A stretch of 64,000 nucleotides of DNA from the NCBI GenBank assembly GCA_963827475.1, contig CAWHAZ010000005.1, forward strand, positions 1 through 64,000. Direction: 5' to 3'. The position numbers and the translations under genes were made by a program. The notes under the pieces were generated by a model. The model worked only from the letters and a program-made list of their open reading frames with translations, did not search any database and had not been told where the DNA came from. The DNA is from an uncultured Chloroflexia bacterium (GTDB taxonomy: Bacteria; Chloroflexota; Limnocylindria; QHBO01). Below, in pieces: positions 2,083 through 20,388 of the stretch (position 1 is its first letter; each line of letters begins with the position of its first letter).

Positions 2083-2822
2083 TCAGGCTGAGGCGGATCG
2101 GTCAGGGCGGTTTGGCGGGTCCGCTCGGGCCCGACTCGCTCCCAGCCCGGAGGCGGAGGCGGTTCGGCCGGCGTGGGGCTCCTGGAGGCCCTGACGGGTC
2201 GCGCGGTAGGTGATCGGGACGCCCGCCAGTTGCCGAGCCAGAGGTAGGCGACTGACAGGACGAGGAAGCCGATGATGATGCCTATCACCACCACCGCGAC
2301 CATCCCGTATCCGCCGTTGGCGGGATCGAGGAACGGATACGGATACCAGCCGTCAACCGCCCCGCGGACGAGCGTGAAGCCCAGCCAGACGAGCGGGTAG
2401 ATCGAGCCAGCGCAGGGCGTCGCTGTAGCGGAGCTGCGTGCCGGGTGGGAACGAGGATCCAGTCGAGGACGACGATGACCGGGAAGATCTTGTGCAGGAC
2501 GACGTCCACCCACACGCAGCTGCAGGCCGACGTCCACGTCCGAACAGGAACAGGATGACGACGAAGAACGTGACGGTGAGGTAGGCCGCGGCGGCTCCGC
2601 GGAACAGGTCGTGGCCCCGGCTCGGCGGGGCGATTTCGTCGCGCGGAAGGCCCAGACGAGGGCGACGACCCCGATCAGGTTGCTCTGGATCGTGAAGAAC
2701 GCGTAGAAGCGGGTCGGGTCGAAGACGCCCTCGCCGGCCAGCGCGCTGGACTGGACGACGATCGCGAGCAGGACGACGGCCGCCGAGAGGAGCCGGACGG
2801 CGTTCCAGAGCAGCTTGCCCAC
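2083..2822 (-). CDS. Pr6Pr (FAR-17a/AIG1-like) membrane protein (frameshifts; 3' end approximate)
   Basis: FYAFFTIQSN, LHKIFP, WYPYPFLDP motifs and several TM helices. Confidence 0.75.
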
Positions 2823-2871
2823 GGGGGAATCCTAGGCCCGCCGGTCAACCGCATTCCCGCCGCGCGGGAGG

Positions 2872-3130
2872 TCAGGACTGGGCGGAGGCGGTCGCGCGCT
2901 TGCGGGTCGCGGGCTGGCGGTCGGGCGAGTCGCCCTCGTCCTGCATCGACCGGCACCGGCTCGGTCTCGTACGCGCCCAGGGTGGCGGCGTCGAGCAGCT
3001 CGTTGAACAGGCGGTCGGCGCGGACCCGGAGCAGGCGACGCGTGGCGCGGCCGCTGCGCGGGGCGAGCAGGACGCCCACGACCAGGCCGACGAAGAAGAA
3101 TCGAATGGCGATCTTGACGCGGCTGAACAT
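2872..3130 (-). CDS. YtxH-like small protein
   Basis: FFFVGLVVGVLLAPRSGRATRRLL matches the YtxH pattern G..LLAPxSGxxTR; tail frameshifted. Confidence 0.65.
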
Positions 3131-3310
3131 CAGAGCGGGAGGATACCACCGGCCCGCCGGGGAGTCGGCGCGGGGCCTAGCCGGTCCAGCACGGCCCGTG
3201 GCCCGTCAGGACACGGTCGGCGATTGCGGCCATAATGCGCGGCCCGGGCGTGTCCCAAGGCCGATTCGCGAAAGAACGACGGCCGCCGCCCGCACCACGA
3301 GAGGAACCGC

Positions 3311-3772
3311 ATGAAGAGTCGTTGGGTACTTATCGCTGTCCTGGCGCTGGCCGCGTGCCAGCCATCAGCCTCGGAATCCCCGAGCCCGTCGGAAGGAGCG
3401 CCCAGCGCGGCGCCGAGCGCGAGCGAGGCCGCGGCCGCCACCGGGACCATCACCCTCCCCGACGAGGGCGCTGCCGTTGACGGGCCCGGGCTGAGCATCG
3501 CCGAAGCTCTCGAAACCGCCGGCGCGGAGCCGCAGCTGGTGAACGGCATCCTGCTCCAGGACACCGATGGAGCGATCTGGCTCTGCGAGTCGATCTCGGA
3601 CTCGTCTCCGCGCGCGTGCGCCGACGCGTACCTGCGGGTCGAGAACTACCCCGAGGACGCCGCCGCCGAAACCTTCGACCCCGAGAACGCGGACGTGACC
3701 GGCTCCCAGGAGGAGGACGGCGTCGTCTGGCTCGAGGATCAGCAGCTGTACGGGACGGTCGTAGCCGACTGA
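3311..3772 (+). CDS. Lipoprotein, hypothetical
   Basis: GAGGA RBS; MKSRWVLIAVLALAA-C lipobox, S/P/A-rich linker, acidic globular domain with two Cys. Confidence 0.75.
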   Translation: MKSRWVLIAVLALAACQPSASESPSPSEGAPSAAPSASEAAAATGTITLPDEGAAVDGPGLSIAEALETAGAEPQLVNGILLQDTDGAIWLCESISDSSPRACADAYLRVENYPEDAAAETFDPENADVTGSQEEDGVVWLEDQQLYGTVVAD

Positions 3773-3773
3773 C

Positions 3774-4054
3774 CTAGGGGCTGGGGCTGGCCGCCGGGCT
3801 GACGCTTTCGCTCGGCTCGGCGCTCGGCTCTCCGCTGCCGCTCGGCTCCGCGCTCCCACTCGAGGCGGGGCTGACGACCGGTGTCGGAACCGGGGTCGGC
3901 TCCGGCAGGAAGCGGGTCGGGACGTTGAGGATGTCGAGCACGAACAGGCTGAGGAAGATCGCGATCACGATCAGGACCCAGCCGCGGGCCAGCCAGTCGT
4001 TGCGCGGCGGCAGCGCGCCCCGGTAGCCGGGGTCGGACGGTTCACGGCACTCAC
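3774..4054 (-). CDS. Small single-pass membrane protein with P/S/E-rich tail (start approximate)
   Basis: LPPRNDWLARGWVLIVIAIFLSLFVLDILNVPTRFLPEPTPVPTP...SAEPS. Confidence 0.5.
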
Positions 4055-4099
4055 AAGCGCGGAAGCCTAGCCGATTCGCTGCCCCGCTCCGCGCGTGCC

Positions 4100-5261
4100 T
4101 CACGACCGGCGGCGGACGACTCCCAGGTTCGCCACGGCGAGGGCTCCGAGCGACGCGATCAGCAGCGCGGCGAAGCCAAGCGTGACCCACATGCCGCCGG
4201 TGGTGGACGGCGCGGTCGCGGCGTTCGGGAGGCTTGCCTGCGGCGTCCCGGTTCCGCCGCGACGGACTGCTCGACGGACTGCTCGACGGACTGCTCCACG
4301 GACTCCCCGATTGACTCCTCGATCGACGGGGGCGGCGGGCAATCCGAGATCGGGGTGGCGTCGTCCGGAAGGATGACGTCCTGCTGGTTCGACGTGATCG
4401 AAACGGAGCTCCGGCTGTGGAGCCACACATAGCTGAACGTGAAGCACGAATCCCCGTCGCCGAAGAGTTCCATGGCGTCGGTGAGGTTGATCGACGCTTC
4501 GGCAAAGGTCTTCGAATCAAGCTGCTGGCCCCCGAGGAAGTTCTGCGCGGCGGGGATGGGGGCGGCGTTCATCGCTCCCTGCACCAGGTTTGGCGGCGGG
4601 GACGGGCAGTTCGAGCCGGAGGCCCTGGTCCCGGCGAAGTCGAGCCACGCGCCCGCGTGCTCGTCGCCACTCCATCGGCATACTCCGAGGACCGGCGGGT
4701 CGACGCTGTACGTGATCAGCAGGTCACCGGCCGTCCGGGTCGGGACCTCGATCAGCCTGCCCGAATGGGTCTCGACCGTGGTCCGGTAGCCCGGCTCGCG
4801 CTGGTTGAGCTCGAACGCCAGGTGCGTGGTTCCGTTGTTCGACGCCCGGATGAAACCGAGGGCGAGGAAGCACATCACCCGTGCCGGGCTCCTGGGCCAC
4901 GTAGCCGCTGAGGATGTCGTACTTGTCCGAGCCGAAGGAACCAAAGTCGAACGTCCACGCGTCAGGATCCTCCTCGCTGCTGCCGGGGCCGAACTGCGAG
5001 TCGCTATTTCCGCTCGGGTTGTCCGGGAGGCTGTTGGTGATCCCGATGATGGACTGCCAGTCGAGCCGGTCGTTGCCCGCTCCGCTGCCATCCGAGTCGA
5101 CCTGGTTGCCGTCATAGCCCTCGAAGCAGCTGCCCGGCAGCGGCGTGCCCGGGGACGCGGGGCCATCGGGCGTGCAGAACAGCCGCAAACACCATGCCGG
5201 GCGAGAGGACGACGAGGGAGAACAGGGCGGCGCTTGCCACCAGCGCGAGCCGACGACGCAT
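4100..5261 (-). CDS. Secreted surface protein with LPNAA-TM-RRR C-terminal sorting-like tail (frameshifts)
   Basis: Signal MRRRLALVASAALFSLVVLSPG; globular domain (RLDWQS..ELNQ..RTAGDLLITY..FAEASINLT); tail SLPNAATAP..LGFAALLIASLGALAVANLGVVRRRS. Confidence 0.7.
4261..4327. repeat. 12-bp coding tandem repeat (GACGGACTGCTC x3 plus degenerate copies) encoding a SVEQ stalk
   Basis: gacggactgctc gacggactgctc gacggactgctc cacggactcccc; minus strand reads SIEESIGESVEQSVEQSVEQSV. Confidence 0.85.
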
Positions 5262-5286
5262 GACACTTCCTCGAGGGCGGGCGGTC

Positions 5287-5328
5287 CGATGGGCGCCTCG
5301 GGCCGGGGGCCGGGGCAGTGTACGGCCC
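5287..5328 (-). promoter_or_regulatory. Repeated upstream element copy 1 (TACACT -10-like box plus conserved 5' leader)
   Basis: Plus strand cgatgggcgcctcgggccgggggccggggcagtgtacggccc, near-identical to 7229-7266 and 8075-8115. Confidence 0.7.
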
Positions 5329-5372
5329 ACGGAGTCGCGACGGAAGCCCCTCCGTCGGAAGCACACGGTGGG

Positions 5373-7202
5373 TTACCGGCGGCGAACGACCCCCAGGTTC
5401 GCCACAGCCAGGGCGCCGAGCGACCCGATGAGCAGGACGGCGAAGCCGAGCGCGATCCAGGAGCTCTCCGGTCCTGGCTGGGCCATCGCCGCGTCGGGCA
5501 GCGAGGGCGCCGGGGCTGGAGCGAAGGCGCCGACGATGACCGAGAACGTGCCGGTGGCGGTGTGGCCGACCGCATCGGTGGCGGTGCAGGTCACCGTCGT
5601 GGTGCCGACCGGGAAGGTCGAGCCCGAGGCCGGCAGGCAGGCCACGGTGGCCGCGCCACCCTGCTCGTCGGTACCGGTGGGCGGGGTGTAGGTCACCACC
5701 GCGCCGCGGCCGAGTTGGCCGGCACCGAGACGTTGGCATGGGCCGCCACGGTCGGCGGCTGGGCCTCGTAGGCGCCGATGTCGCAGGCGGCCGGACGGGG
5801 CATCCCGCGCTGGTCGAGGCCGCTGACCGGCGCTGCCGCACAGGTCGCACTCGTGCCCGTATCGATGGCCGGATTGCCGGCCACGAGCGCCAGGGCGATG
5901 GTCTGGGTCGGGCCGCCGTTGTTGGCCAGCCCGGCCGGGTCGAGCACGCCGGCGGGACCGGCGGCGAAGACGTTGTTCGTGCTGGTCACGGTCCCCCCCG
6001 GCTCGTTCGTGATCGCGGTTGGCAATTCGCCGACGAAGAGACTGTTCCTGACGGTCGCCGTGCCACCGTTGTCGATGCCGCCGCCAGTAGTGCTGGCCGA
6101 GTTCCCGCTGAACGTCGAGTTCGTAAGGGTCAGGCTGCCCAGGAAATGGTTCGCGATTCCGCCTCCGGACGTGGCTGAGTTCCCCTGGAGCGTGGTATTC
6201 ACCACGGTCAGGATGCCGCCTGGGTAGTTGGCGATCCCTCCGCCGGTGGCGCTGGAGGAGTTCCCGTTGATCGTGGAGCCGACGACGGTCAGCGTACCGC
6301 CGACCTCGTTGTTGATACCGCCTCCGTCCCAGTTGCTGGTCGAGTTCCCGCTGATGGTCGAGTTAGTGACGGTCACGTTCCCGCCGAAGGAGTTGGCGAT
6401 CCCGCCAGATCCACCGCTGGCCACGTTGTCGGCGATGACCGAATTCGTGACCGCAATCGTGCCCCCGACGTTGGTCATGCCGCCGCCGCCGCCGCTGGTG
6501 GCCGTGTTCTGGCTGACCGCGGAGCCGATGATGTCCAGCGTCCCGTGGTCGTTGAGGATGCCGGCGCCAAAGGTCGCCGTGTTCCCGAGGATCGTCGAGT
6601 TGGTGACGGTCAGCGTGCCGTGATTGTTGATGCCGCCACCGGCGTTGCCGGCCGTGTTGCCGCTGATCGGTCGAGTCGGTGACGGTCAGGGTCCCGTTGT
6701 TGAGGATACCGCCGCCGGGGCCGCCGGCAGTGTTGCCGCTGATGGTCGAGTCGGTGACGGTCAGGGTCCCGTCGTTGGCGATGCCACCGCCAGGGCCACC
6801 GGTCGAACCATTGGTCATCGTCAGCCCCGACAGAGTGACCGTGACCGACCCGACGTTGAATACCTGGAAGGCGCCGCCCCCGTTGACCGTGACCGCTCCA
6901 GCTCCCAAGATCGTGAGGTCGCTCGAGATGGCTGGGAGCGCCGACCCCACGGTGATCGTGCCGGCGACGCTGAACGTGATGACATCGGCGCCCGAGCCGG
7001 CAATGCACTCACCCGGAGCTGCCCCGGACGGGGCATCGGCGTTGGCCGCGGTGATCGCCTCGCGCAAAGTGCAGAACCCATCGTCGCCAGGTGCCGTGTC
7101 GGCCGTCGAGTTCACGGTGAGCGCCGCGGCGGCAACCGGAGTCGCGGTGAGGCCCATCAGCAGGCCAAGGATGATCAGGATCGTGGCGACTCGGGCGCGC
7201 AT
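5373..7202 (-). CDS. CSLREA-domain / right-handed beta-helix / choice-of-anchor Q / HYR surface protein with LPDAA-TM-RRR tail (frameshifts)
   Basis: VNSTAD..CTLREAITAAN; repeated NxGTLTVTxSTISGN..GGGI; LANNGGPTQT..DQRG..CDIGAYE; HYR SGSTFPVGTTTVTCTATD; tail LPDAA..LGALAVANLGVVRRR. Confidence 0.85.
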
Positions 7203-7228
7203 TGGCGGTTCCTCAAGGGGGAGCTGGC

Positions 7229-7266
7229 CGATGGAGCCTCGGGCCAAGGCCGGGGCAGTGTACGGC
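7229..7266 (-). promoter_or_regulatory. Repeated upstream element copy 2
   Basis: Plus strand cgatggagcctcgggccaaggccggggcagtgtacggc, upstream of the ATG at 7202. Confidence 0.7.
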
Positions 7267-7310
7267 GGGCAGCGTCTGCGCGGAAGGCCCGCCTCGGAAC
7301 CGAGCGGCTG

Positions 7311-8048
7311 CTACCGGCGGCGCACGACTCCCAGGTTAGCCACGGCTACCGACCCGAGGGTCCCGATCAGGAGGAGTCCGAAGCCGATCGCCGCGAGCGG
7401 GCTGCCGGTGGGCGGCGGCGCGGTTGCTGCGTTCGGCAGGCTCGAGGTTCCCGGAGTCGGCGGGTTGGGTAGGTCGTAGGTGATGGTCAGGACCGGTCCT
7501 AGCTCCTCAATAAACCCATCACCACAAACAAATGAGTCAAACGTCGTGACCGACTCGGGATCGGGTCGGATCGAGAATCCCGCCGAACCTGCGCTGATCG
7601 TGGCGGCTGTTACCAGGCTCGTCACGTCGTAGTCCGCAAGTGCACCGTTTGTAATCGGTGTGAAGAGGATTGGCGTGCCTGTGACCTGGATGTCCGGCTC
7701 CGTGATCGAGCCATCGCCCGCGTAGCCGTACATCGCGTGCTGAATGAAGGTGAACTGTGTGGACGCGTGGAGAGTGAGGGTCGCGCTGAGGACCGTGGCC
7801 TCCGGTGGGAGGTCGGTCAAGGGAAATTCGAGCGCGGAGCGGTATCGGTCAGTGTCGAAGTACGCACCGCTCGGGCAGCCAGATACTCCTTCGGTCCAGG
7901 GTCCCCCAAATAGCGAGTCAAATCCCTTGCCGATCCCGCCGTCGGCGTTCGCGATCGCGAGGCTGCCGCCCCCCGCCGACACCGGCGCCGCGGTGACGGC
8001 CATCAGCAGGCCGAGGATGATCAGGATCAGGGCGACGCGGGCGCGCAT
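7311..8048 (-). CDS. Secreted DNRLRE/CBM96-like protein with LPNAA-TM-RRR tail
   Basis: Signal MRARVALILIILGLLMAVTAAPVSA; RSALEFPLTDLPPEATVLSATLTL; PVLTITY; tail SLPNAATAP..AVANLGVVRRR. Confidence 0.75.
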   Translation of the reverse strand: MRARVALILIILGLLMAVTAAPVSAGGGSLAIANADGGIGKGFDSLFGGPWTEGVSGCPSGAYFDTDRYRSALEFPLTDLPPEATVLSATLTLHASTQFTFIQHAMYGYAGDGSITEPDIQVTGTPILFTPITNGALADYDVTSLVTAATISAGSAGFSIRPDPESVTTFDSFVCGDGFIEELGPVLTITYDLPNPPTPGTSSLPNAATAPPPTGSPLAAIGFGLLLIGTLGSVAVANLGVVRRR

Positions 8049-8074
8049 GGCGGTTCCTCGAGGGGGCAGTCCGA

Positions 8075-8115
8075 CCGATGGAGCCTCGGGCCGGGGCCGG
8101 GGCAGTGTACGGCCC
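8075..8115 (-). promoter_or_regulatory. Repeated upstream element copy 3
   Basis: Plus strand ccgatggagcctcgggccggggccggggcagtgtacggccc, upstream of the ATG at 8048. Confidence 0.7.
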
Positions 8116-8147
8116 GCGTGGCGGCGAACGAAGCCCGGGGCGATGGG

Positions 8148-10088
8148 TCAGGCGGCGTTGCGCATGGACGGGATGAGCCAGCCGATCAGCCCGGCGGCGA
8201 CCGCCACCGCCCCACCCAGCATCAGGGTCCGGTCCGCCCCGATGATCCCGGCCAGGATGCCGGACACGGCCATGGCGGTGGCCATCACCCCGAACACCAG
8301 GGCCTGGCGCGACGTCACCACCCGCGCGAACAGGGCCTGCGGCGTCCGCTCCTGGAACAGGGTGATGTTCGGGATGACGAACGCCATGTTCGTCGCGCCG
8401 ATGAGGAAGAACAGGGCGATCGCGAGCACCGGATCGGTCACCAGGCCGACGACGATGAAGGTCACGCCCATGCCGATGAAGCCCGCGATCGCCATCGGTC
8501 CCTTCTTGGCGTCTCCGGCGAACCCACCGATGACGAGGCCGCCGACGATGCTGCCCAGCCCGATCGACGCCATAAGCAGCGAGTAATTCTCCGGAAAGCC
8601 GATGACCGACTGTGTCGAGCACCGACTGCGCGTAGAGGAGCGAGCAGGTGACCTCGGTCCCGACCGCGACCTGGGCCATGGTTGACACGAGCGTGTTCGC
8701 CCGCAGCTCCGCCTGGTGGACGAGGAACGAGATGCCCTCCCGCACGTCGCGCCACAGCTGACCGATGCCGAACGCGCCGGCGGCGCGTTCGTGGCGGGGC
8801 ACCTGCATGAGGACCAGGAACAGGGCGGAGATGAGGTACGTCCCGGAGTCGATCACGAACGCCGTGCCGATGATCCCGGCCAGGGCGGCGACCATCAGCC
8901 CGGCCAGGGGGTAGCCGATGAGGTCGGCCAGGGTCTCGGTCACGCTGGTCGCGCTGTTGGCGGGGAGGAGGTCCTCGCGGTCCACGATCTGGGGCACGAG
9001 CGCGTCCTTCGAGGGGCGGAACAGGAGCGACACGGTCGCCACCGCGAAGGCGACGAGGTAGACGAGCAGGATGTTCACGTTGAACGCGAGCGGGATGGTC
9101 AGCACCAGCGCGGCGCGGATGAGGTCCGCGGCGATCATCGTCCGGCGCCGGTCCCAGCGGTCCGCCAGGGCGCCGGCCCACGGGCCGAAGATCACGTTCG
9201 GGACGGCGATGGCGGCCATCGTGAAGCCCACGTCCAGCGGCGTGCCGCGGGTCGCGACCAGGAAGCCGAGGGCCACCTGGTGGATCCGGTCGCCCATCAG
9301 GCTGACCAGCTGGCCGCACCACAGCAGGGCGTAGTTGCGGTTGCCGGCGAGGCGGAGGTACGGCGACTGCGGCTCTCCTCCTCCTCGACCGCGACCCCGA
9401 TCCCCGGACCGGGCAGGACCGGCACCGGCTCGGCGGCGAGCGGCATGGCGGTGGCATAGGCGACGCCCAGCTGGAACTCGCCGGCGGGCATCGGTCGTGG
9501 CGGATTGGCGCCCAGCGCCACCGACATCCGGGTCGGCACCGACGGGCGGGTCATGGCCGCCGCGATGGCCCACACGATCCCGACCCACAGCAGGACGTCG
9601 CCGATGCTGATGACGTCGCGCAGGACCGGGATGGGGATGGGCACCACGTCGCCGAACATCCCGCCCTGCCGGACGAACTCCGCGGTCGAGTCCGCGGTCA
9701 GGACGATGTGGAACGGGTCGCCGGCGATGTCGGCCAGGGACAGCCCGGCGGCGAACAGGGCGCCCTCGAAGACCGGCATCTTGCCCTGGTGGAGGATGAC
9801 CGCGATCGTGTTCAGGGTGACCCCGATGGCCGCCACCTGGAGCCCGGGCACCTTCCAGTTGCGGTACAGCCAGATCACGATCAGGACGTAGGTCACCGGC
9901 AGGCCCCAGGCCGCCGCCACGTCCGCCCCACCGGAATCGGTGGTGATCGCCAGCCCGGCCGCCAGGCGCACGGCGAGGGCGATGCCCAGCAGCCAGATCC
10001 ATTTCAGGCGGAGGTCCGCCAGGCGGGGGAGCTGCCCTCCGGCCAGGGCCCCGAGGACGAGGCCGACCAGGATGGCGCTAAGGAGCAT
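8148..10088 (-). CDS. DUF5317-family membrane domain fused to an MFS exporter (DHA3/EntS-like); frameshifts about 9375 and 8610
   Basis: N-term GGQLPRLADLRLKW..LN..GKMPV..H..GDVVPIP..VISIGDVLL (DUF5317); then NRNYALLWCGQLVSLMGD, GALADRWDRRRTMIAAD (MFS motif A), FQERTP..ARV; no separate start codon before MFS TM1. Confidence 0.75.
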
Positions 10089-10089
10089 C

Positions 10090-11499
10090 TTCCGAGGCGA
10101 GTGCTGGCCTCGAGGTCGGGCTCCCTTCGTCGGTGCCGGTGGCGACGGTCACGCTCGGACCGGTCGGCGGCGGCCACCAGGTCGTCCTGGTGGAGCATGG
10201 TCGGCAGCTCGTCGGGCCGCTCCGGCGGGCGATCCAGGATGTCGCGGCTCAGCCCGACCAGGACCGGCACGATCTCCGGGTCGAACTGGAGGCCGGAGTA
10301 CTTCTCGAGCTCGGCAATGGCCTGCTCGTGGGTCAGCGCGGTGAGCCGATACGGGCGGGAGCTGGTCATCGCCTCGTAGGCGTCGGCCACGGTCAGGATC
10401 CGGGCGCCGAGCGGGATGTCGTGCGTACTCCAGCGCCGTCCGGGTAGCCGCTGCCGTTGATCCACTCGTGGTGGGCCCGGATGAGCGGCGCCTCCGGCGC
10501 GAGCTGGTTGGCGGGCGCCACGATCTCCGCCCCGATGGTCGGGTGCTGGTTCATGAGGATCCGCTCCTCGCGGTTCAGCGGCCCCGGCTTGAGCAGGATG
10601 TTGTCGCGGATCCCGATCTTGCCCACGTCATGCAGTAACCCCGCCCACTTGATCTTCTCGACCTCCGACTCGGGCAGGCTCATGACCCGGCACATCGCCT
10701 CCGAGATGTGGCTCACCCGGTTCGAATGACCGCGGGTGTACCGATCCCGGGCGTCCACCGCGTTGGCCAGGGCCCCGATCGTCTGCTCGAACAGCTCGCG
10801 GGTCTCGACGTAGCGGTGATAAGCCATGCGAGTCGTGAACAGCGGGATCGCGAACAGCGCGGTCGCCCACCAGCCGACTCCGTTCGGCAGCAGGAATACC
10901 TGCGCCATCAGCCACCCCACAGGCGCCAGGCCGAGGAGGTTCGGAGCAATCGCGCCGATATCTCGCGCAAAGACTGTTCGAACCGAAGCTCCGGTCCTGA
11001 GCGACACAGCAACAACCGCGAGCGACGCACTGATGAGGGAGTAGACGAGCCCAGCGATGAGTGAGTCCCGCGAACTGGACGAGCGACGACTGCAACGGTG
11101 GCAAGCCGGACGCCAAGTCGGCGATCAGCTCGAAGGGGATGCCGGCCACGACGGCGGCTATGACCAGGGCGCGTGGTTGAAGAGCGTCCCGTACCACGGG
11201 ACTTCCCCGCTCAATTCCCTGGAGTCCGTGGTCCCAATCGCCGCCACTATCCCGCCAGCGGTCGGACCACCAAGCACGATGGAAGCCAAAAGCGGCGCGA
11301 AACTGACCGAGGCCACGGTCCCGGTTGGCAGGCGCACAGGCAGGGCGCTGGCGACCAGCGTCAGGATGGTCCAGTAGGCGATCCCCGCGGGACCGCCGAT
11401 CTCTTCCCGGATGGGGAAGAAAACCGAAACCGCCGCGAGCGCAATCGCTGCGGCGGCTACTGTAAGGCCAACAAGGAGCTGGACTCTCGCGGTCACCAA
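10090..11499 (-). CDS. Membrane-sensor HD-GYP c-di-GMP phosphodiesterase (frameshifts; 3' end approximate)
   Basis: Multi-TM N-terminus (LPVRLP..SVSFAP..LFNHA); AVDARDRYTRGHSNRV, LLHDVGKIG, HPTIGAEI, HHEWINGSGYP, IPLGARILTVADAYEAMTSSRPYR, QFDPEIV. Confidence 0.9.
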
Positions 11500-11548
11500 G
11501 CTCCAACCCTAGCCTTGCGAGTCAGATTGCGTCAACCGCGACGCCAGG

Positions 11549-11647
11549 CTACCAACCTTTGACGGAAGCTCCTCCGGCGAGCGCCAAAAGAACTAAGGCC
11601 ACGACTGGCAGCAGGCGGACGAAGATGCGATGTCTCACTGTGTCCAT
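11549..11647 (-). CDS. 32-aa signal-peptide-like precursor MDTVRHRIFVRLLPVVALVLLALAGGASVKGW (putative peptide pheromone)
   Basis: Hand translation, ATG 11647 to TAG 11549; basic N-region, hydrophobic core, polar C-terminal ASVKGW; directly upstream of the HD-GYP gene on the same strand. Confidence 0.8.
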   Translation of the reverse strand: MDTVRHRIFVRLLPVVALVLLALAGGASVKGW

Positions 11648-11662
11648 CGCGGTCTCTTCGTC

Positions 11663-11689
11663 TTACCAGCCCTTAATTGAGGCTTTCAC
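11663..11689 (-). CDS. 8-aa mini-ORF MKASIKGW
   Basis: GTG AAA GCC TCA ATT AAG GGC TGG TAA with GAGGG 8 nt upstream; C-terminus matches the neighbouring precursor (ASVKGW) but uses different codons. Confidence 0.5.
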   Translation of the reverse strand: MKASIKGW

Positions 11690-11734
11690 AGAAGGTGCCC
11701 TCTTCTGACGAGGAACCGACCTATCCGGTCTGGA

Positions 11735-11808
11735 TGGTCGGTTGCACTACTTGCTCCCCACGCGCCTAAGTGCCCAACGTTCAGCGCGTGGATCTTTGCT
11801 TCCGGATC
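11735..11808 (-). ncRNA. Cyclic di-GMP-II riboswitch aptamer
   Basis: Minus strand GGAAGCAAAGATCCACGCGCTGAACGTTGGGCACTTAGGCGCGTGGGGAGCAAGTAGTGCAACCGACC: 5' GGAA, stem CCACGCGC/GCGCGTGG, loop TTGGGCACTT, pseudoknot GCAC/GTGC, 3' AGTAGTGCAACCGACC, as in the known class II aptamer; lies upstream of an HD-GYP gene. Confidence 0.88.
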
Positions 11809-11809
11809 G

Positions 11810-14800
11810 TTATCGACCAGTACGAAAGTACTGGCGTTGTGGTGGGACCCTAGCGCCCAGTGGCGGGCAAGTCAAGTCTTTTCGCCAAGAAGTCAACAAC
11901 GAATGGACCGACGCATGGGCATTTCCGCCGAGCTCGGAGAGAGCACTATGGACCTCCTGTGACGCGGGCACCTGCAATTCCTCTTCGACTGCCGTCGCGA
12001 ACTCGCTGATGAGTCGTCGTGCCGCAGCCCGACGACCCATCTCGTGCAGTTTTCTAGCCATCGCCACATGAGCGGATTCGTCGAACGGGTCGAACTCGGT
12101 CAGCACCTCCGCGGCCCGGAGCGAGACATGCGCCGGGATGTCCGGAGTGCTTGCGACTGCGATTTCTAGGAGGGGCTCCCGGACCTCAGCGGCCACCGAC
12201 ATCTGTATCCCTGCTGCCCAGTCCTCATACCGAAGGTCAGCGAGAAACTCGCCGCGTATGAGGGAAAGCATGGCGATAGCTGCCCGGCGTCGCTCCTGGG
12301 CACTTGTGGCACCTTGGAGCAGAGCTGAGAGGCGTCGGACTTCGTCGAGATCGCTGACGACCAACTCCGGGTCGAACGCGAGAGATTCGCCGCTGCTCAC
12401 AACGTACTGTGGTCTGTCCGGATCCTTTGAGCCGGAATTGAGATGCCGGCGAAGCTGAAAGACGGCCTGATTCAGGTTGTTTACGCCACCCGCTGGATCG
12501 TGGTCTGGCCAGAGAATCTCCATAGCCATCTCTCGAGTGAGCGTCCGATGTCGATTCGCGACTAGCAGGCCCAACAGCAGTCGGAGCCGCTTCTTGTCGA
12601 TGGTGATCTCAGGTCCGTCCCAGTCGCCACGATGGACGCTGAGCGGCCCGAAGGCTCTCACGTAGAGCCGAGCAGCGGTGCTCCTCAGGATCTCCCTGCG
12701 GACTTGCGCGACGTCTTCGCCGGCGCACTCACGAAGTAGTCCGGCCGTCTCGGCGTTCCCACGTGACCGCACCAATGCGAGAGCTTCCGCCCGCTCGGAT
12801 CCGTCAAGAGTGGGAAGAATCTCGACTAGTACCGGCATCCAAAAGGTCAGGTCCCCAGCCGCGATTCGGAGGAGTTGGGCTACATGGCCGCTCGTAGCCA
12901 AATGCTCTGCAAAGGGCGCGAAGCGTCGAAGCCACCAACGGAGATACGGTATAGCCCCGAATCGCTCCGCGCCCGCCAGAGCTCGCGAAGCGTGCACGCC
13001 GGCGTTCGCGGAATCGTGCTCTATCAGAAGCGGAGTGAGTTGTACGAGGCCGCAAGCCGCCATAAAGCGCGCACCACGCTCCTCCCAAGATTTCAGTTGC
13101 TCAAGCGCTGTCGCACACTCGCCGGTGCATGAGTTTCGCGCGTGAGCTGCGAGGGCCAGGGCAGCGGATGTGCTCGCGGACAATCGCGGGTCTGGGTCGA
13201 GCCGGCGCAATTTGACGCTCGCCAAATCTAGGTCATCCTGGCTCGCTCCTCCGAGGTAGTAGGCGCAGATGAGCAGCGCGAGAGAAGGCTCCTCAAGGCC
13301 GCCGAGGATTTCCCGCTTGGAGAGGATCCGTCGCAGCAGGCGAGTCGCCTCGCTGAATTCCCCTCGCTGGAGCAGTACGCAAGCAAGGCCAAACTCCGCC
13401 TCGGCATGTGGTCGCGGCCACCTCCTTGTCCTGACGATTCCCTGTTGAGCGACTACTTCGGCTCGCCCCACATCCGCCACCGCAAGGAGGGTCTCCACGA
13501 AATCAGCGTTGTCTCCGAAAGGACTGCTTGGGATGGCACGCCAAAACCTGTCTGCCTCCTCGAAGTTCGCAAGGCTCTCAGTCAGCCGGCCGAGCCACCG
13601 CTGAACCAAGCCGAGGTTGTGATGACCGATTGCGGCGTAGTGCATGAGACCGCGCGACCTTGCTTCGTGCACAAGCTCTTCGCAGTCCCGCTCGGTCCGC
13701 TCCATTGACTCGAGCCAGGTCTCAGTGATCGCGAGGTTTCCTCGGAGTCGCAGCCTGGTCTCAAAGTCGTCAGGCCCGGCGAGGGTCAAGCCTCGCCGGG
13801 CAGCCTGGACGCTCTCGACGGCCTGGCCGCGGTAATTGAAGTGCGTACTCAACTTTAGTTCCGCCAGCGCGGCCATCCTGCGATCACCCTTTCTCTCGAA
13901 GAAGATCCGTCCCTTCTCGAGAGCTTCACGGGCAGAGTCCCACTCTCCACGTATGGTGCCGAGTGACTCACCGTGCAGCAGCGATAGGCGCGCGTTGTCT
14001 TTGATCGTCTTTGTTGGCAGCTGGCTAAGCCATTCGTCTATAAGACCAAGTCGGCCCTCGCCCACGACGGATTCCCCGTATTTGGCTATGAGCCGCGCTG
14101 CTTGGCGCTGAAGGCCCGCACGGAGGTAATGGTGGATGGCCTCCGGCCATTGGAGCGTCGTCTCGTAGTAGGAGGCTGCGTGAATATGGAGGCCGATAAC
14201 CTCGGGGTCCGACCGTTCCGCTGCGAGGCGCCGCTCCAAGAAATCCCGGAACAACCCGTGGTAGCGATACATTTTCTCGTCCACGTCCAGACGGTTCGTG
14301 AAGAGGCCTCGCTGCTCGAGATCAGCCAATAGGAGCGAACCGTCCCGCACTCCACTTAGTCGTTCGGCAAGTTCCGCCGTGATCTGCTGGAGGATTGATG
14401 TACACAGCAAGAAATTCCTTGTTTCATCGCTCTGCTGGTCGAGGACTTCTTCTGCCAAGAAGGCAAACAGGTCGTTGTCGGTCGCCGCGGTAATCGACTC
14501 GATGAATGAGCTGCGTTCCGCTGGGCGGCTCTTGTCTCGCAACGAGACCTCGACGAGCTGAAGGCTGGCAGCCCACCCTTCTGTTCGGCGGTCGAGCTCA
14601 ATCAGCTCGCCCGGATCAAGAGGGTCGGAATAGACATCGCGGAAGAGAGCGTCAATTTCAGGTTCCCTAAAGCGCAGGGCATCAGTCCGCAGCTCGCCGT
14701 AGCCACCGTGTGTGCGAAAGCGAGCGAACTGGAGTCGGGGCCTTGCACGTGACAGGAAGACGAACCGGCAGGTTGGAGGCGCGTCGCGCAAGATCTGATT

Positions 14801-15265
14801 CCAGAGCCCGCGGACTTCGGTCTGGCTCGTTACGAAATGCCAGTCATCGATGATGAATGTGCACGGCTCAGTGAGCCGCTCGTGCATCTCAGCTAGTAGA
14901 AATGCGGCCACTCCAGGGCGGCTCGATCCCGGGCCGCCAAGTTGGCGGAGCATGCTGTGCGCCTGATGTCCGAATCCAGGGTGGCGTTGGGCAATCGCTT
15001 CGATGAGGTAACTGATGTGGAGTGACCAGTCACGGTCATTGCGGTCGAGCTTGTACCAGTAGCACGGGAATTCCACCTCGCGCTCCCACTGCCAAAGCAG
15101 CGTGGTCTTTCCATAACCGGCATCTGCCGCGACGACTATGGCCCGGCAGTCGGCGTGGTCATTCAGCCAGTCGATAAGGCGCGCACGACGAAGCGTGGGG
15201 GTCACATAGTGGGGCGACGTGACCTTGTTGTGGATGAGGGGATAGGCGGTATTGATCTCGCCCAA
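11810..15265 (-). CDS. MalT-like STAND NTPase - TPR - winged HTH/BTAD (SARP-type) transcriptional regulator, about 1150 aa
   Basis: GGAGGG RBS and TTG at 15265; RRARLIDWL, Walker A ADAGYGKTTLL, Walker B FIIDDWH, TEGWAASL, YRYHGLFRDFL, helical repeats, AFGPL..LWPD..LRRHL, GEFLAD..DPFDESAH. Confidence 0.88.
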   Translation of the reverse strand: MGEINTAYPLIHNKVTSPHYVTPTLRRARLIDWLNDHADCRAIVVAADAGYGKTTLLWQWEREVEFPCYWYKLDRNDRDWSLHISYLIEAIAQRHPGFGHQAHSMLRQLGGPGSSRPGVAAFLLAEMHERLTEPCTFIIDDWHFVTSQTEVRGLWNQILRDAPPTCRFVFLSRARPRLQFARFRTHGGYGELRTDALRFREPEIDALFRDVYSDPLDPGELIELDRRTEGWAASLQLVEVSLRDKSRPAERSSFIESITAATDNDLFAFLAEEVLDQQSDETRNFLLCTSILQQITAELAERLSGVRDGSLLLADLEQRGLFTNRLDVDEKMYRYHGLFRDFLERRLAAERSDPEVIGLHIHAASYYETTLQWPEAIHHYLRAGLQRQAARLIAKYGESVVGEGRLGLIDEWLSQLPTKTIKDNARLSLLHGESLGTIRGEWDSAREALEKGRIFFERKGDRRMAALAELKLSTHFNYRGQAVESVQAARRGLTLAGPDDFETRLRLRGNLAITETWLESMERTERDCEELVHEARSRGLMHYAAIGHHNLGLVQRWLGRLTESLANFEEADRFWRAIPSSPFGDNADFVETLLAVADVGRAEVVAQQGIVRTRRWPRPHAEAEFGLACVLLQRGEFSEATRLLRRILSKREILGGLEEPSLALLICAYYLGGASQDDLDLASVKLRRLDPDPRLSASTSAALALAAHARNSCTGECATALEQLKSWEERGARFMAACGLVQLTPLLIEHDSANAGVHASRALAGAERFGAIPYLRWWLRRFAPFAEHLATSGHVAQLLRIAAGDLTFWMPVLVEILPTLDGSERAEALALVRSRGNAETAGLLRECAGEDVAQVRREILRSTAARLYVRAFGPLSVHRGDWDGPEITIDKKRLRLLLGLLVANRHRTLTREMAMEILWPDHDPAGGVNNLNQAVFQLRRHLNSGSKDPDRPQYVVSSGESLAFDPELVVSDLDEVRRLSALLQGATSAQERRRAAIAMLSLIRGEFLADLRYEDWAAGIQMSVAAEVREPLLEIAVASTPDIPAHVSLRAAEVLTEFDPFDESAHVAMARKLHEMGRRAAARRLISEFATAVEEELQVPASQEVHSALSELGGNAHASVHSLLTSWRKDLTCPPLGARVPPQRQYFRTGR
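11847..11875 (-). promoter_or_regulatory. Sigma70-type promoter for the riboswitch/peptide/HD-GYP operon
   Basis: TTGACT (11875-11870), 17-nt spacer, TAGGGT (11852-11847), about 40 nt upstream of the aptamer. Confidence 0.65.
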
Positions 15266-15365
15266 CGAATGACCCTCCGATGGCGGGCACTTTACGGGCG
15301 TGCGCTCCGCCAGATGGCAGCATACGGCCGTTCGACTTACCAGCCAATTAGTTGAGGCGGAACTC

Positions 15366-15897
15366 GTGAGGGCGTGGATCGGGCTGGGCGGCAATCTCGA
15401 AGGGTCGCGAGCGGCGCTCGTATCGGCCCTGGACTCGCTCGCCGATTTCGGCACGATCGGACCGATCTCGAGCTTGTACCGATCCGCCCCGCGAGAGCGG
15501 ACCGATCAGCCTGATTTCCTCAACGCCGCGGTGGTCGCTGGAGACCGAGCTCGAGCCGCGACCGCTGCTGGTCGAGCTGAAGGCGATCGAGCGGCGACTC
15601 GGCCGCGACCCGTTTGGCCATCGGTATGGGCCGCGCCTGGTGGACCTGGACCTGCTGGCGATCGAGGGGCGCTGCGTGGACGACGAGCCGGACCTGGTGG
15701 TGCCGCACCCGAAGCTGGCCGAGCGGCGGTTCGCGCTGGAGCCGCTGGCCGAGCTGGATCCGAACCTGAAGCCGTGGGCGGAGTGCCCCGGTGACCGGCG
15801 CGAGCTGACCGTGGCGGAGGCGCTGGCGGCGGTGATGGATCAGGAGGTCGAGGTGATCGAGGGACCGGGCTGGGCGGGGATCACCGAGCCCCAGTAG
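15366..15897 (+). CDS. folK: 2-amino-4-hydroxy-6-hydroxymethyldihydropteridine diphosphokinase (frameshift about 15540)
   Basis: AWIGLGGNL, SSLYRSAP..QPDFLNAA, GPRLVDLDLL, LVVPHPKLAERRFALEPL. Confidence 0.9.
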
Positions 15898-16523
15898 AAC
15901 GGGCCGCTCGCCTCGAGGCTGGCGGTCCATCCCAGCGTTGCCAGCCGATCCGCCAGGTCGGCCGGGTTCCAGAGCACCTTCACCGCGTGGTGCGGGGTGC
16001 CGTCCAGCAGCGGGCGGCGGACGATGCCGCGCTCGCGGTCGACCCAGTCCTCCTGCCACAGGCCGTGGTCCGCCTCGTCGGCGACGAAGACCCGTCCGCC
16101 GGGGCGGAGGAGGCCGGCGCACAGCTGCCAGAACGCCTCGAACCGCGAGTACGGGACGTGGGACAGCCAGAAGCCGAAGACCACGACGTCCCACTCCGGG
16201 GCCGGCTCCAGGGCGAAGACATCGGCCACCGCGTAGCGGACGTGGGGACCGCCGTGGCGGGCGGCGTTGATGGCCAGCATCTCGTCGGAGGCATCGGTCA
16301 CGGTCAGCTCGTCCGCGAACTCGGCCAGGATTCCGGTCCACTGGCCGGTGCCGGCGGCCAGCTCGAGGACGCGGCCGCGGGGCTCGAAGGCGCGGAGGGC
16401 GGTGCGGATGCGCTCGAGGTCCGCCTCGAACGGGTTGTCGGGTGAGGTCGAGGTGACGTCGTACTCGGCCGCCCGGTCGCGGTAGTAGCGGATCTGGCCC
16501 TCGATCAGCGCCTGGTCGTCCAT
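15840..16523 (-). CDS. Class I SAM-dependent methyltransferase
   Basis: YYRDRAAEYD, VLELAAGTGQWT, FWLSHVP, LRPGGRV. Confidence 0.85.
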   Translation of the reverse strand: MDDQALIEGQIRYYRDRAAEYDVTSTSPDNPFEADLERIRTALRAFEPRGRVLELAAGTGQWTGILAEFADELTVTDASDEMLAINAARHGGPHVRYAVADVFALEPAPEWDVVVFGFWLSHVPYSRFEAFWQLCAGLLRPGGRVFVADEADHGLWQEDWVDRERGIVRRPLLDGTPHHAVKVLWNPADLADRLATLGWTASLEASGPFYWGSVIPAQPGPSITSTS

Positions 16524-16707
16524 CGGTCAGCCGGTCACGACCGTCCCAACCGAACCGGATGTCGGCTGCTGCCACACGACCTCGAAGGTGGCTTTGAGGC
16601 CCGAAAACTCGTGGCGATCCATGAAGAACGGCACGTGGCCAAGGATGCGATACGGCTCGCGGGCTGGCAACGGATCGTAAACAAGTTGGCGGCTTCCCTA
16701 TGCTGCC

Positions 16708-17106
16708 GTGCTGATGGCAGCCGATGACTCGCGAATCAAGATCTGGGCGCGTCGGGCCGGCTACGCCGTTCTGCTCGCGGCGCTCGTGCTCCCGTGGGTG
16801 CTCATCGCCCAAGGGCGCGCCCAGCGATCAGCATCAGCACCTGCGGTGCTCGAACAGGTGTGGGAGCAGTCGAATGGCCGATTCACGATCGGGGCGTTCT
16901 CGTTCACGGTCGATGGTCAGGTCTACCGGGGGCAGGACGAGGACCCGGGCACACCAACACGCGGGAGCCGGACGTGGAGCTCAGACGAGCTGGTGGGAAT
17001 GCACGTCTGCTACGACCCGGAACTGCCAGGCGAGGAATTCGCCCTGGCCCCGGCCCGCTACCGCTGCGGCGACCCGGACATCATCACGACCGACGGGGGG
17101 TGGTAG
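16708..17106 (+). CDS. Hypothetical membrane-anchored protein (DUF3592-like)
   Basis: Single N-terminal TM, FSFTVDGQVYRG, VCYDP. Confidence 0.45.
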   Translation: MLMAADDSRIKIWARRAGYAVLLAALVLPWVLIAQGRAQRSASAPAVLEQVWEQSNGRFTIGAFSFTVDGQVYRGQDEDPGTPTRGSRTWSSDELVGMHVCYDPELPGEEFALAPARYRCGDPDIITTDGGW

Positions 17107-17118
17107 CGGCTACTCCCC

Positions 17119-20100
17119 TCAGTCGAGGAGGTAGTCCACGATCCGGTCCATCACCTGGTTGCGCGATGACCGCATCGGTGATCCCCTCGAATCCGAACCC
17201 GAGGTAGACCGAATCCGGCGTCGTGATGGCGGCACCTTCCTTGATGCCCAGGCCGCCGCGGCGCGTCCAGTCGTTGATGTTGGGACCCTCGATGTTGGCC
17301 TCGTCCTGCGGCGCCCCGGGGACCGTCCAGCCGTCCATGGGATCCGCGTCGTCCTCGAATGAGGTCGACCCCTCTCCGGTGGACACCACGATGTCGTCGA
17401 TGAAGACGCCAGGGAACTGCTGGAGGCCCCAGTCGCTCAGGACGGTGATCGAGACCTCGACCTGCTGGCCGGCAAATGGCGAGAGGTCGATCTCGAATTG
17501 CTGCCAGCCGCCCGAGGATCCGTTCGCGGCATGCCAGATCCCGGTCGAGCCGGTGCTGCTGCACGTCCCGTCGGCCTCGTTGAACGTCTGGTAGTGGGTG
17601 AGGAACGGATGGAGGACGTTGGCCGGGTCATCCGGATTGCTCCAGCCGCCCGGGCACGCCTGGTCGAAGCTCAGGTCATCGGACGTGTGCCCGTTCGCGT
17701 CGGGGAGCGTGGTCCAGTCGTCCGTGCCGACCGGGTGGGCTTCGACAATCATGTAGTCGAAATCCAGCTCGAGGTTGTAGCTCGTCCAGAAGGACAGCGT
17801 TGCGCCGTCCGCGGCGGTGACGGCGGTGAGGTCGATCGTCCGCGCCAGCCGCTTGTAGGCCTGGTCCGCGCGCTGGGACCACATGAACGAGTCGCCGGTG
17901 TGGGGGTCGAACGGACCGCTGATCCCGGTCTCGTAGATCGCCGAGGGCCAGCTCGCGAACTGCGGGAAGCTCCCGCTCGGATCGGTCACGCTCAGGTAGT
18001 CCTCGAGCGCGATGAACGACGAGTCGATTGCCTGGTTCTGCGCGCTGTCGGCCCCGTTGCGCTCCAGCGCCAGACCGTCGAGGGGATCGTCTGATGCCGG
18101 TGATCGCGAACGGGTCGCCCGTGTCGGGATCAAGTCCCCCGCCGGGCGTGGTGATGACCGCGCCCAGCCAGTACTCGATGGGGTCACCCTGGTTGTCGCC
18201 GGAGCCGGTCAGCGGCAGGCAGCGGGCCACGACCTCCGGGCTCGACGCAGCATTGGGCGTTCTCGAACGGGTCGTACAGCTGCAGCCCGAGGCCGCGTCG
18301 TGTACTGCTGGCCGGCGCGCTGGCCGGTGTACAGACGCGGCCGCCCTCGTTCATGAAGTCGCGCAGCTCGAAGATCTCCTGCATGGCCAGGCGCGAGGCG
18401 TTGCCCGGACCCCAGCCCGGTTCGCGGGTCACGATGTCGTTGCCGGTGTACCAGAGGACCGCGTCGTAGTGGCTGAGGATGCCGAGGTTGTCCGGCGCCG
18501 TCCGCCCGTTGGCGTCGACGTCGTACACGTCGAACGGGACGCCGTTGGCGGTGAGGGCATCGGTGTAGAAGCTCAGATAGTTCGGCCCGCTCTGGTCGGC
18601 ATACACCGGTGAGGCACCGGTGTAGTCCTCGGCAGCCACCACGAGCAGGCGGTCTGCCGCTGTCCGAGACGACGTCGTAGGTGAACGAGTCGCTCTTCGC
18701 GCCGCCGCCCTCGAACCAGACCTCGACCTCGTCGCCCACGGCCGTGCCCGGCACGTTGCCGGCGATGACGTGGTAGTGGGTCCCGGCACCGGGGCCGTAT
18801 CGCTCACCGCCGTTCCACTCCTGGGTGGCGACCTTGATCATGTCGCCGCCGTTGATGCGGTAGACGAGCTTCACGTTGGTCAGGCTCCGCTTGGCGAGGA
18901 CGCGCACTTCCTGCGTGTCGCCATACGACTGGTCGAACGTGAAGTCGAAGAGCGAGTGCGCGCCGTTCTGCGGATCGATCTCGTCCTGGTCGAGATAGAA
19001 CGGCTGAGTGTCGATGCCGCTCGGTGAGACCGGGTCGTCCGGGTCCGGCGCCGACCGGGCGAGGGCCAGGTGGAACGGGAGGATCCGCTCGAACTCGGCC
19101 TGGACCAGGGCTTCGTCGTCGGGGAACACGAAGCCGGCGCCCGGGATGCCCGAGCCGAGCTCCGGGGTGATCGCCACGGTGCCGCGGGCATCGGCGTAGT
19201 CGGTCGTCTCGCCGTTGGTGACGTACAGGGTGTCGGCCGATTGGCCCGGGTTGAATCCGGGCACGGCCGGGTTTGCATCGGTCCCGGCCACGGCCACGTA
19301 GACCGGGTTGTCGGCGTCGAGGGTGCCGGTCTGCCAACCCTGGGGATACAGCAGCCACTCGCCCGTGGAGTGCATGTTCGACATGAACTTGGGCTTGATC
19401 CGGTTGATCAGGGACTGCATCGCCTGCGTCTCGGGCTCCGATGCCGCGCTCGGGCCACGGTAGGTCTCGTCCGCCGGGTCGGGCGACGAGCCCTCGTTGT
19501 CGTAGCCCCAGTGATCGGCGAAGTTGCGGTTCGGATCCACGCCGTCGCCAATCGTGATCTGGCCGTCTTGGTTGTTGTCGCGCAGGTTCTTGCGCCAGAG
19601 CCGCTCGACGTCGAAGGTGTACTGGTAGCCGTCCGGGTTGGCGACGATGACGAACCACAGCTCGGTGCGGCGCAACAGGTCCCGGATCTCCGGGTCGCCG
19701 GCGTTGTACTGGTCAATGAAGTAGTGGAGCGTCCGCCGGTTCACCTCGACGCTGATCCATTCGCGCGCATGCTGCAGCGAGGTGTACAGGACCGCGGGCT
19801 TGTTCGGCCGGCCCGCCGCCGGTTACCCGCACCGCGAGGATGTCGCGACCCTGCGCCGTGGTCCCGATCGTCTCCAGCCGAACGAGATTCGGGTTGGCCG
19901 CCGCGAGCGCTTCCAGCTCGTCCTGGATGCCGCCCGCCTCGTCCCACGACCGCCAGACCGTGAAGCCGTTGGCCGCCTGCAGCGCGGCCTGCTCGCTGAC
20001 CGTCTGTCCCTGCGCGTTGCGCACGAAGTCGACTTCGATCCCCTGCGCCCGGATCCGCGCTGCCTCGCGCCGGGTCAGGACGACCTCGGCCCGGGTCCCG

Positions 20101-20282
20101 TCGGTGGTGTGCTGGACGTTGAGGAGCTCCAGACCTGCGGTCGCCTCGGCGACGGCGTCGGCCGGACCCTGGAGAACGTACATCTCCAGTTTTTCGTTCT
20201 GTGGGCCTCCCGCGACCGCCGTCAGAGGCGGCATGGCCAGGATGAGCACGAGCGAAACAACGGTCCAGACCTTGGCGCGCAT
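17119..20282 (-). CDS. Secreted M14 zinc carboxypeptidase with C-terminal immune-inhibitor-A-like domain (several frameshifts)
   Basis: Signal peptide; QHAREWI, ANPDGY, WRKN, GVDPNRNF, YRGPSAASEPET, NMHS; later SYNLELDFDY, NGSSGGW, FIDDI. Confidence 0.85.
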
Positions 20283-20388
20283 GGATTCTCCTCTGGCGAT
20301 GGAGGGCGGCGGGGTGACCCTAGAAGAGGCGATGGACGAAGTCAAACCGGGGTGGCCTCCCGGCGGTGCAGCCGGGCAACGCCCGCCG

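Follow-up and report, generated by a model that had tools for sequence, protein, structure and literature searches.

Does the short reading frame that lies between a riboswitch and an HD-GYP phosphodiesterase gene in an uncultured Chloroflexota bacterium encode a protein, and what would such a protein do? In the window, by which we mean the whole 64,000-nucleotide stretch of DNA analysed, the frame lies on the minus strand and runs from an ATG at 11647 to a TAG at 11549 (translation MDTVRHRIFVRLLPVVALVLLALAGGASVKGW). A first-pass annotation, made from the letters alone, had placed an unannotated 32-residue precursor here, about 50 nt upstream of the HD-GYP start. We found the frame where it had been placed, the translation exact and the frame conserved in relatives, and measured 49 nt from its stop to the TTG (11499) and 52 nt to the GTG (11496) that open the HD-GYP frame. 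The features of the locus are collected in Table 1.

Table 1. Positions in the window of the micro-protein gene, its leader and its neighbours
Feature	Position	Strand	Basis
DUF5317 fused to MFS (MFS_3/MFS_1) transporter	7918..10088	minus	Pfam; frame-broken in the window
MASE9-like membrane domain + HD-GYP (HD_5) phosphodiesterase gene	10004..11499	minus	Pfam; at least three frames in the assembly
GCGGTTGACGCA, window version of conserved GTG[GC]TAGACTCC	11528..11539	minus	relatives' alignment
32-codon micro-protein gene (ATG..TAG)	11549..11647	minus	sequence, codon-position entropy, dN/dS, alignment, family profile
Mini-ORF, 8 codons, VKASIKGW-stop (GTG here, ATG in relatives)	11663..11689	minus	sequence, conservation
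19-nt hairpin CAGAAGAGGGCACCTTCTG	11689..11707	minus	alignment of 12 sequences
Anti-aptamer/terminator-like hairpin, AACCGACC (aptamer 3' strand) + GGTCGGTT	11714..11743	minus	MFE folds
c-di-GMP-II riboswitch aptamer (RF01786)	11729..11812	minus	covariance-model score
Palindrome CCAGTACTTTCGTACTGG	11817..11834	minus	conserved in 12 aligned leaders
Regulator: MalT-like STAND ATPase + TPR + OmpR/BTAD-type DNA-binding end	11810..15454	minus	Pfam, structure-profile match
RNA-library contig X2	11420-11747		
RNA-library contig X3	11497-11742		
RNA-library contig X17	11549-11742		
RNA-library contig X18	11503-11809		

Conservation of the reading frame

Judged by the window alone, the micro-protein ORF does not exceed chance level: 67 ORFs of at least 25 aa occur within 5 kb of this G+C-rich DNA. 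Its significance comes from its conservation in relatives. Using the 19-nt hairpin of the leader as the search pattern and one genome per species, we retrieved 58 loci, nearly all from MAGs of the Chloroflexota or 'Candidatus Limnocylindria'. One of them (L046) was a chance match, which left 57 true loci. An ATG-started ORF of 31-32 codons was found in 44 of the 57 and a GTG-started ORF of 32 codons in three, while ten held a frame-broken copy with a tail that could still be read; all ten were long-read 'MFD' MAGs. Among eleven relatives' loci that were fetched, ten carried an ORF of 32-34 codons in the same place and the eleventh (L004) was frame-broken. The length is 32 codons in close relatives and 29-36 in wider ones.

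Codon-level comparison of 39 distinct 32-codon sequences gave summed entropies of 34.7, 21.2 and 50.5 for codon positions 1, 2 and 3, and at codons 22, 26 and 31 the first two positions were invariant with 1.45-1.99 bits at the third. The first-pass annotation had proposed dN/dS as a check. Pairwise NG86 values in the same set were 0.34 for the whole ORF and 0.16 for codons 22-32, as expected of selection at the protein level; in frame controls on the same DNA the +2 frame gave 2.27 and the +1 frame contained stops in 36 of 39 sequences. Synonymous sites are saturated across the set (mean dS 1.5), and the ratios are for this reason, if anything, overestimates. Among environmental contigs 90-99% identical, 11 of the 12 listed differences within the ORF were synonymous by codon reading, the twelfth being V4M. 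Loss of the frame in relatives, which had been named as grounds for abandoning the gene, was not what we saw, since length, frame, start and stop are kept. These comparisons indicate that the ORF is a real protein-coding gene under purifying selection.

An SD-like motif stood within 22 nt of the micro-protein ATG in 42 of 45 distinct leaders; the window's copy, which has no SD-like tetramer of the counted set at this distance, is one of the other three. Contigs from RNA libraries of three studies span the complete ORF together with the mini-ORF and the 3' part of the aptamer, and one reaches 80 nt into the HD-GYP gene; such contigs may have DNA content, and strand, ends and level are not readable from them. 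The contigs of two studies stop at 11503 (X18) and 11497 (X3), where a DNA contig continues. These stops hint weakly at transcripts ending between the micro-protein and HD-GYP genes.

A family profile built from 37 sequences was searched against 1.84 billion representative proteins and returned 47 matches at E ≤0.001, nearly all of 29-36 aa and ending in AGGAS.[KR]G[WF]. Nine that we looked up were metagenomic and either unnamed or called 'hypothetical protein'. The exact window protein was absent from a collection of 15 billion proteins, in which relatives are present as 'hypothetical protein'; Pfam and NCBIfam held no model matching the family, and the ESM Atlas returned unnamed clusters only (32-34 aa, best score 0.91). 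The profile matched 23 of 401 sampled genomes of the phylum, always in single copy and always within the window's class ('Candidatus Limnocylindria'): 13 of 16 genomes of one family (f1), the window's own genome and 9 of 23 genomes of another (f3). It found nothing in the 358 other genomes of the phylum that were searched. In four of the six f3 loci a pattern search caught the ORF, encoding a peptide of 29-30 aa and preceded by a 10-codon mini-ORF that has a strong SD and ends in K-[GS]-[WF]; the search did not catch it in the other two (L087 and L089). A gene conserved across a class of abundant soil bacteria thus goes unnamed in standard annotation. In the literature searched we found no published description of a system of micro-protein, riboswitch, HD-GYP and DUF5317, no paper on DUF5317 and none on Limnocylindria and c-di-GMP.

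One genome (G010) holds two copies of the whole locus (L021 and L037, on contigs C10 and C8), with tails of the GGASVKGW and AAGAGLRGL types. They reflect a genuine duplication or else a bin of mixed origin.

The riboswitch leader and the neighbouring genes

With 57.3 bits (E 5.5e-12, full-length match 1-84) the aptamer exceeds the RF01786 gathering score of 53.5. It lies ~80 nt upstream of the micro-protein ORF on the same strand and is the sole c-di-GMP-II aptamer in the 1.92-Mb, 7-contig genome. It recurs in all eleven of the relatives' loci (43.5-63.4 bits, six above the cut-off) and in all six f3 loci (51-68 bits). A hairpin that takes up the 3' strand of the aptamer was predicted in seven of seven folded leaders, followed in some relatives by a U-rich tail; it may serve as an anti-aptamer or terminator. 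The 19-nt hairpin, which abuts the start of the mini-ORF, was identical in 11 of 12 aligned sequences, one base off in L003, and absent from the f3 leaders. Because its loop AGGGCAC repeats the GGGCAC of the aptamer, it is a possible competitor for the GUGC pseudoknot strand of the latter.

A mini-ORF of 8-10 codons with a K-G-W-stop end was present in 56 of the 58 motif loci. Its codons show synonymous Arg AGA/CGA and wobble at Thr and Ala, and its K-G-W codons are near-invariant at synonymous sites (AAG in 54/56, GGC in 50/56). A hairpin whose 5' arm consists of the K-G-W codons and whose loop contains the stop codon has a mean of -8.7 kcal/mol as against -4.1 kcal/mol in shuffles, with one compensatory case, GAGCTGG/CCAGCTC. 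In the window the mini-ORF has a GTG start and the K-G-W hairpin is missing. A further measure, enclosure of the stop codon by a helix (44/46, for both ORFs), was dropped, as shuffles reached 79% and 89%. The ORFs found in other families (see below) suggest that the mini-ORF of the Limnocylindria arose as a tandem copy of the micro-protein gene and was then truncated. Such an origin, which we infer, would explain the K-G-W end that the two have in common.

The palindrome CCAGTACTTTCGTACTGG is perfect, lies 5 nt upstream of the aptamer, and is a possible promoter or operator site that the adjacent regulator might use. In relatives, the micro-protein stop is followed after 10-15 nt by GTG[GC]TAGACTCC, and the HD-GYP start is preceded at 9-10 nt by TAGGGT; both motifs resemble -35/-10, extended -10 or SD sequences, and a second promoter for the HD-GYP gene is a possibility. 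A promoter scan of 11400-12000 gave no sigma-70-like site, and its one terminator-like match, inside the micro-protein ORF, is at chance level. An Rfam sX7 match was rejected (22.4 bits against 55), and a tRNA/tmRNA search found none.

An HD-GYP gene lies downstream of the micro-protein in 67 of 68 loci. Its product is best seen in an intact orthologue of 484 aa (L012), with HD_5 at E 4e-37 and MASE9 at E 1.5e-4 over residues 51-222. We call the membrane domain only 'MASE9-like' because the MASE9 (PF20972) match of 22.2 bits falls below the Pfam cut-off of 24.3. Compared with a relative 84% identical, the window's HD-GYP gene carries indels at about 11173, 11063, 10436 and 10422. Since the DNA contigs of other relatives differ from the window at three of these four places or a few bases away, and since other genes of the window are split as well (the split genes being PCMT, HD-GYP, DUF5317-MFS and Peptidase_M14, at 646-1723, 7918-11499 and 18212-20345), the frame breaks are likelier to be assembly indels of a long-read MAG than gene decay.

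On the other side of the leader, the regulator has 1214 aa. Its N-terminal 420 aa resemble MalT (8bob_C, E 1.8e-46; NF003420, E 3e-77, below the cut-off), TPR repeats are present, and its C-terminal end has a weak Trans_reg_C/EmbR match. The stretch 11400-15400, which comprises regulator and leader, has ~59-64% G+C against ~70% in the flanks. Despite this lower G+C we take the regulator to be an old part of the locus, because 53 of 68 loci have its C-terminal part conserved upstream, in the same orientation. Beyond the locus, we scanned 57 flanking ORFs (at 1-8583 and 15843-26722) against Pfam. They came from 98 ORFs selected in window positions 1-35,000 at a length of at least 130 aa and GC3 of at least 0.62, with ORFs of the locus itself, and any further out than 26.7 kb, excluded. 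No peptide exporter, C39 peptidase, radical-SAM enzyme or Opp importer was found among the 57.

Does the micro-protein belong with the RNA switch or with the enzyme? DUF5317 occurred in 91 of 301 sampled Chloroflexota genomes, and HD-GYP adjoined it in 12 of the best 14 loci from other families. We extended five loci, from four other Chloroflexota families, and every one had a hydrophobic ORF of 30-32 codons within 400 nt upstream of HD-GYP. These ORFs have their own SD-like motif and end in ..A[AGS]GA[DN].[KRQ]..W, with Trp not always the last residue. The family profile had missed them in the survey of 401 genomes; an hhalign comparison with the window's family gave a probability of 68% and E 4.7e-5 over 21 columns, which lends modest support to homology. 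A c-di-GMP-II aptamer was present at one of the five loci, and the other four had neither riboswitch nor mini-ORF. As the ORFs of other families mostly do without the riboswitch, we take the peptide to belong to the enzyme module and not to the RNA switch.

The one extended locus with an aptamer (L104, 2248-2496 on the minus strand; aptamer 52.7 bits) has two identical tandem 31-codon copies behind it, each with GGAGG, followed by HD-GYP and DUF5317.

Proposed role of the micro-protein and its alternatives

The first-pass annotation had described a basic N-region, a hydrophobic core and a short cargo, a layout that proved to be conserved and to include an invariant small-residue motif. Across 44 proteins, residues 1-9 carry a mean net charge of +2.4, the hydrophobic core spans residues 8-27 (~20 residues, mean Kyte-Doolittle 1.93), and no protein has an acidic residue from residue 8 on. 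The motif L-A-x-A-G-G-A is invariant or nearly so (A22 in 39/39, A24 in 38/39, G26 in 39/39, A27 in 38/39), and the tail reads [SG]-[FVLI]-[KR]-G-[WL]. One clade ends in L-R-G-L and keeps K-G-W in its mini-ORF.

Signal peptidase I cuts where positions -3 and -1 hold small uncharged residues. The micro-protein has such residues at possible -3/-1 positions, behind a charged n-region and an h-region like those of a Sec signal peptide. Conservation showed no signal of helical periodicity (AP 1.16-1.55, reached by 194-393 of 1000 shuffles). The A-x-A-G-G-A motif fits a signal-peptidase site and helix packing equally well, and by its sequence the peptide is equally compatible with an uncleaved single helix, N-terminus in and C-terminus out, and with a tail released by signal peptidase. 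A double-glycine leader for C39 exporters was rejected: G25-G26 is present, but no Peptidase_C39/ABC gene was found in the scanned flanks. The consensus of such leaders is amphipathic, unlike the basic and hydrophobic leader seen here. A type I toxin was set aside in view of the single-copy gene and its fixed synteny with HD-GYP.

We give an even chance to the proposal that the micro-protein is a membrane partner, within the same cell, of the HD-GYP and DUF5317 proteins, made at high c-di-GMP as part of a feedback that lowers c-di-GMP. Binding of c-di-GMP to the aptamer would prevent the anti-aptamer/terminator hairpin. High c-di-GMP would in this way turn on expression of the whole set (mini-ORF, micro-protein, phosphodiesterase and DUF5317-MFS), closing a negative feedback loop. 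The 32-residue product is predicted to insert into the membrane with its N-terminus in and its C-terminal tail out, and to act on the HD-GYP and/or DUF5317-MFS proteins of the adjacent genes, perhaps as a one-helix partner of the MASE9-type sensor domain or as a ligand that it binds within the membrane. The tail, GGASVKGW or SVKGW, would either stay anchored or be cut off by signal peptidase past the small-x-small motif. The describers of MASE9 propose intramembrane ligand binding (bioRxiv 10.1101/2021.11.05.467447).

The evidence for the partnership with HD-GYP and DUF5317 is gene order. The proposal leaves the K-G-W end common to mini-ORF and micro-protein unexplained, and the window's own copy speaks against it, having no counted SD tetramer, a GTG start for the mini-ORF and frame-broken HD-GYP and DUF5317-MFS genes. 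To our knowledge, the inputs of the membrane sensor (MASE) domains of c-di-GMP enzymes are largely unknown. A micro-protein tied genetically, in several families of the Chloroflexota, to a MASE9-like HD-GYP protein and to DUF5317 is a testable candidate for such an input or for a subunit.

Could the micro-protein instead be the precursor of a secreted signal? A Sec signal would then make up the N-terminal 24-27 residues. After cleavage behind A-x-A or G-G-A, GGASVKGW or SVKGW would diffuse to a receptor, either the MASE9 HD-GYP protein or, after re-import, the MalT-like STAND/TPR regulator. The basic N-region, the hydrophobic core, the invariant A22, A24 and A27 and the polar tail with a basic residue and Trp all suit this explanation, as do the ORFs of other families, which keep small-x-small followed by D/N-x-K/R-..W. 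So do the conserved TPR-bearing regulator upstream and the MFS_3 transporter of 'secretion effector' type in the operon. The closest models are the Phr/SHP precursors of Firmicutes, in which an export or hydrophobic part is followed by a conserved C-terminal tail of 5-8 residues and a TPR regulator is encoded next door. Unlike in those systems, the neighbouring regulator is of the MalT-like STAND type and not RRNPP, though it has TPR repeats, which places it outside the known families of peptide receptors; it is also absent upstream, despite enough flank, at five loci (L005, L011, L027, L057 and L059). The exporter, protease and importer genes of Phr/SHP systems were not found among the 57 flanking ORFs, nor was a modifying enzyme, and the would-be mature peptide is less strictly conserved than the small-residue motif. 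We regard a secreted precursor as unlikely.

A c-di-GMP-gated signal made of two K-G-W-ended peptides, an intracellular 9-mer and the exported tail of the 32-mer, read by the MASE9 sensor and the STAND/TPR regulator, is decidedly improbable in our judgement. If it were true, a MASE-type domain would have its first peptide ligand, and a second-messenger riboswitch would for the first time be coupled directly to peptide signalling between cells. We know of no quorum-sensing peptide in the Chloroflexota, and of no precedent for a c-di-GMP link in Phr/SHP-type systems.

The two ORFs may also be supposed to act mainly in cis as leader peptides, with ribosomes relaying the state of the riboswitch to HD-GYP translation by melting hairpins and the K-G-W-stop ends serving as a termination pause. 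The common K-G-W end of two tandem ORFs, the near-invariant K-G-W codons in a hairpin arm more stable than in shuffles and the constant spacing of 31-56 nt between micro-protein and HD-GYP all speak for this. Selection at the protein level, however, extends along the whole 32-codon ORF, the hydrophobic core included, and in the L-R-G-L clade only the mini-ORF has the K-G-W end. From the end of the micro-protein gene to the HD-GYP start, RNAalifold found no consensus pairs in 40 sequences, and the folding energy was nearly equal to that of shuffles (-13.5 against -11.8). Because ORFs like this one precede HD-GYP and DUF5317 at four of five loci without riboswitch or mini-ORF, and with Trp not always last, a purely cis-acting leader peptide is disfavoured, and we consider a mainly cis-acting role very improbable. 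An arrest-peptide monitor such as SecM, MifM or VemP was ruled out by length: in these the chain must let an N-terminal signal exit the ribosome while the C-terminal arrest motif is still in the tunnel, and 32 residues are too short for force sensing of this type.

That the frame is a chance ORF in a structured non-coding leader or, as the first-pass annotation had allowed, the frameshifted N-terminus of the HD-GYP gene has a negligible probability and is refuted as far as sequence comparison allows: ORFs are abundant in this DNA and frameshifts are many in the assembly, but the ORF has retained its length, frame, start and stop although synonymous divergence is saturated; where a relative's HD-GYP gene is intact (453-494 aa), the ORF stands apart and ends in a stop of its own 31-56 nt before that gene, whether in its frame or in a different one; and no profile match has the peptide as the N-end of a larger protein. 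The longer profile matches continue upstream across the aptamer, in which GTGCAACCGAC is read as V-Q-P-T.

Comparison with known systems

Single-helix regulators of about 30 residues, with a short conserved outer tail and a gene beside that of their target, are known from MgrB-PhoQ, KdpF and sarcolipin. The micro-protein resembles them in size, in its one predicted helix and in gene position, and we claim no sequence relation. The leader is like other RF01786 riboswitches in that its aptamer scores above the gathering score and an alternative hairpin uses the aptamer's 3' strand. It differs from them in its length of ~230 nt to the enzyme gene, in the two conserved mini-genes, which look translated, and in the 19-nt hairpin.

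The nearest published case is the CD1980.2 family of C. difficile (PMC13724677), which shares neither size, copy number, riboswitch class nor gene context with the present one. As described there, its members are membrane proteins of 58 aa, occur as five to seven paralogues 76-88% identical and are encoded by stand-alone genes behind class I riboswitches that are turned off by c-di-GMP; they promote sporulation, and no homologues are reported beyond C. difficile (PMC13724677). Common to both is a small hydrophobic protein, unannotated or 'hypothetical', whose gene lies directly behind a c-di-GMP riboswitch. By description the two are set apart: the micro-protein has 32 aa and is single-copy, the aptamer before it is of class II and probably acts as an ON switch, and its gene is the first real one in a chloroflexotal operon with HD-GYP and DUF5317-MFS. 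The locus would be a second, unrelated case of riboswitch-governed small membrane proteins beside that one published example (2026, C. difficile).

The downstream enzyme is like the MASE9-HD-GYP proteins in having an N-terminal polytopic membrane domain followed by HD-GYP, with a weak match to MASE9. The MASE9 passages of Galperin and Chou mention neither a micro-protein nor a DUF5317 partner, and the word 'riboswitch' is absent from their paper (bioRxiv 10.1101/2021.11.05.467447). For DUF5317 (3266-3865, plus strand, in L002; 9297-10088, minus strand, in the window), a structural model had a pLDDT of 91.1 and showed about five helices and a small sheet. A Foldseek search of the PDB with this model gave no match at E ≤0.001, and VIA-align reached a best Z of 7.0, on helical hairpins only. 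The invariant columns of DUF5317 include D147, S161, G163 and D164, and matches to the domain occur also in Thermotoga maritima and Thermus thermophilus.
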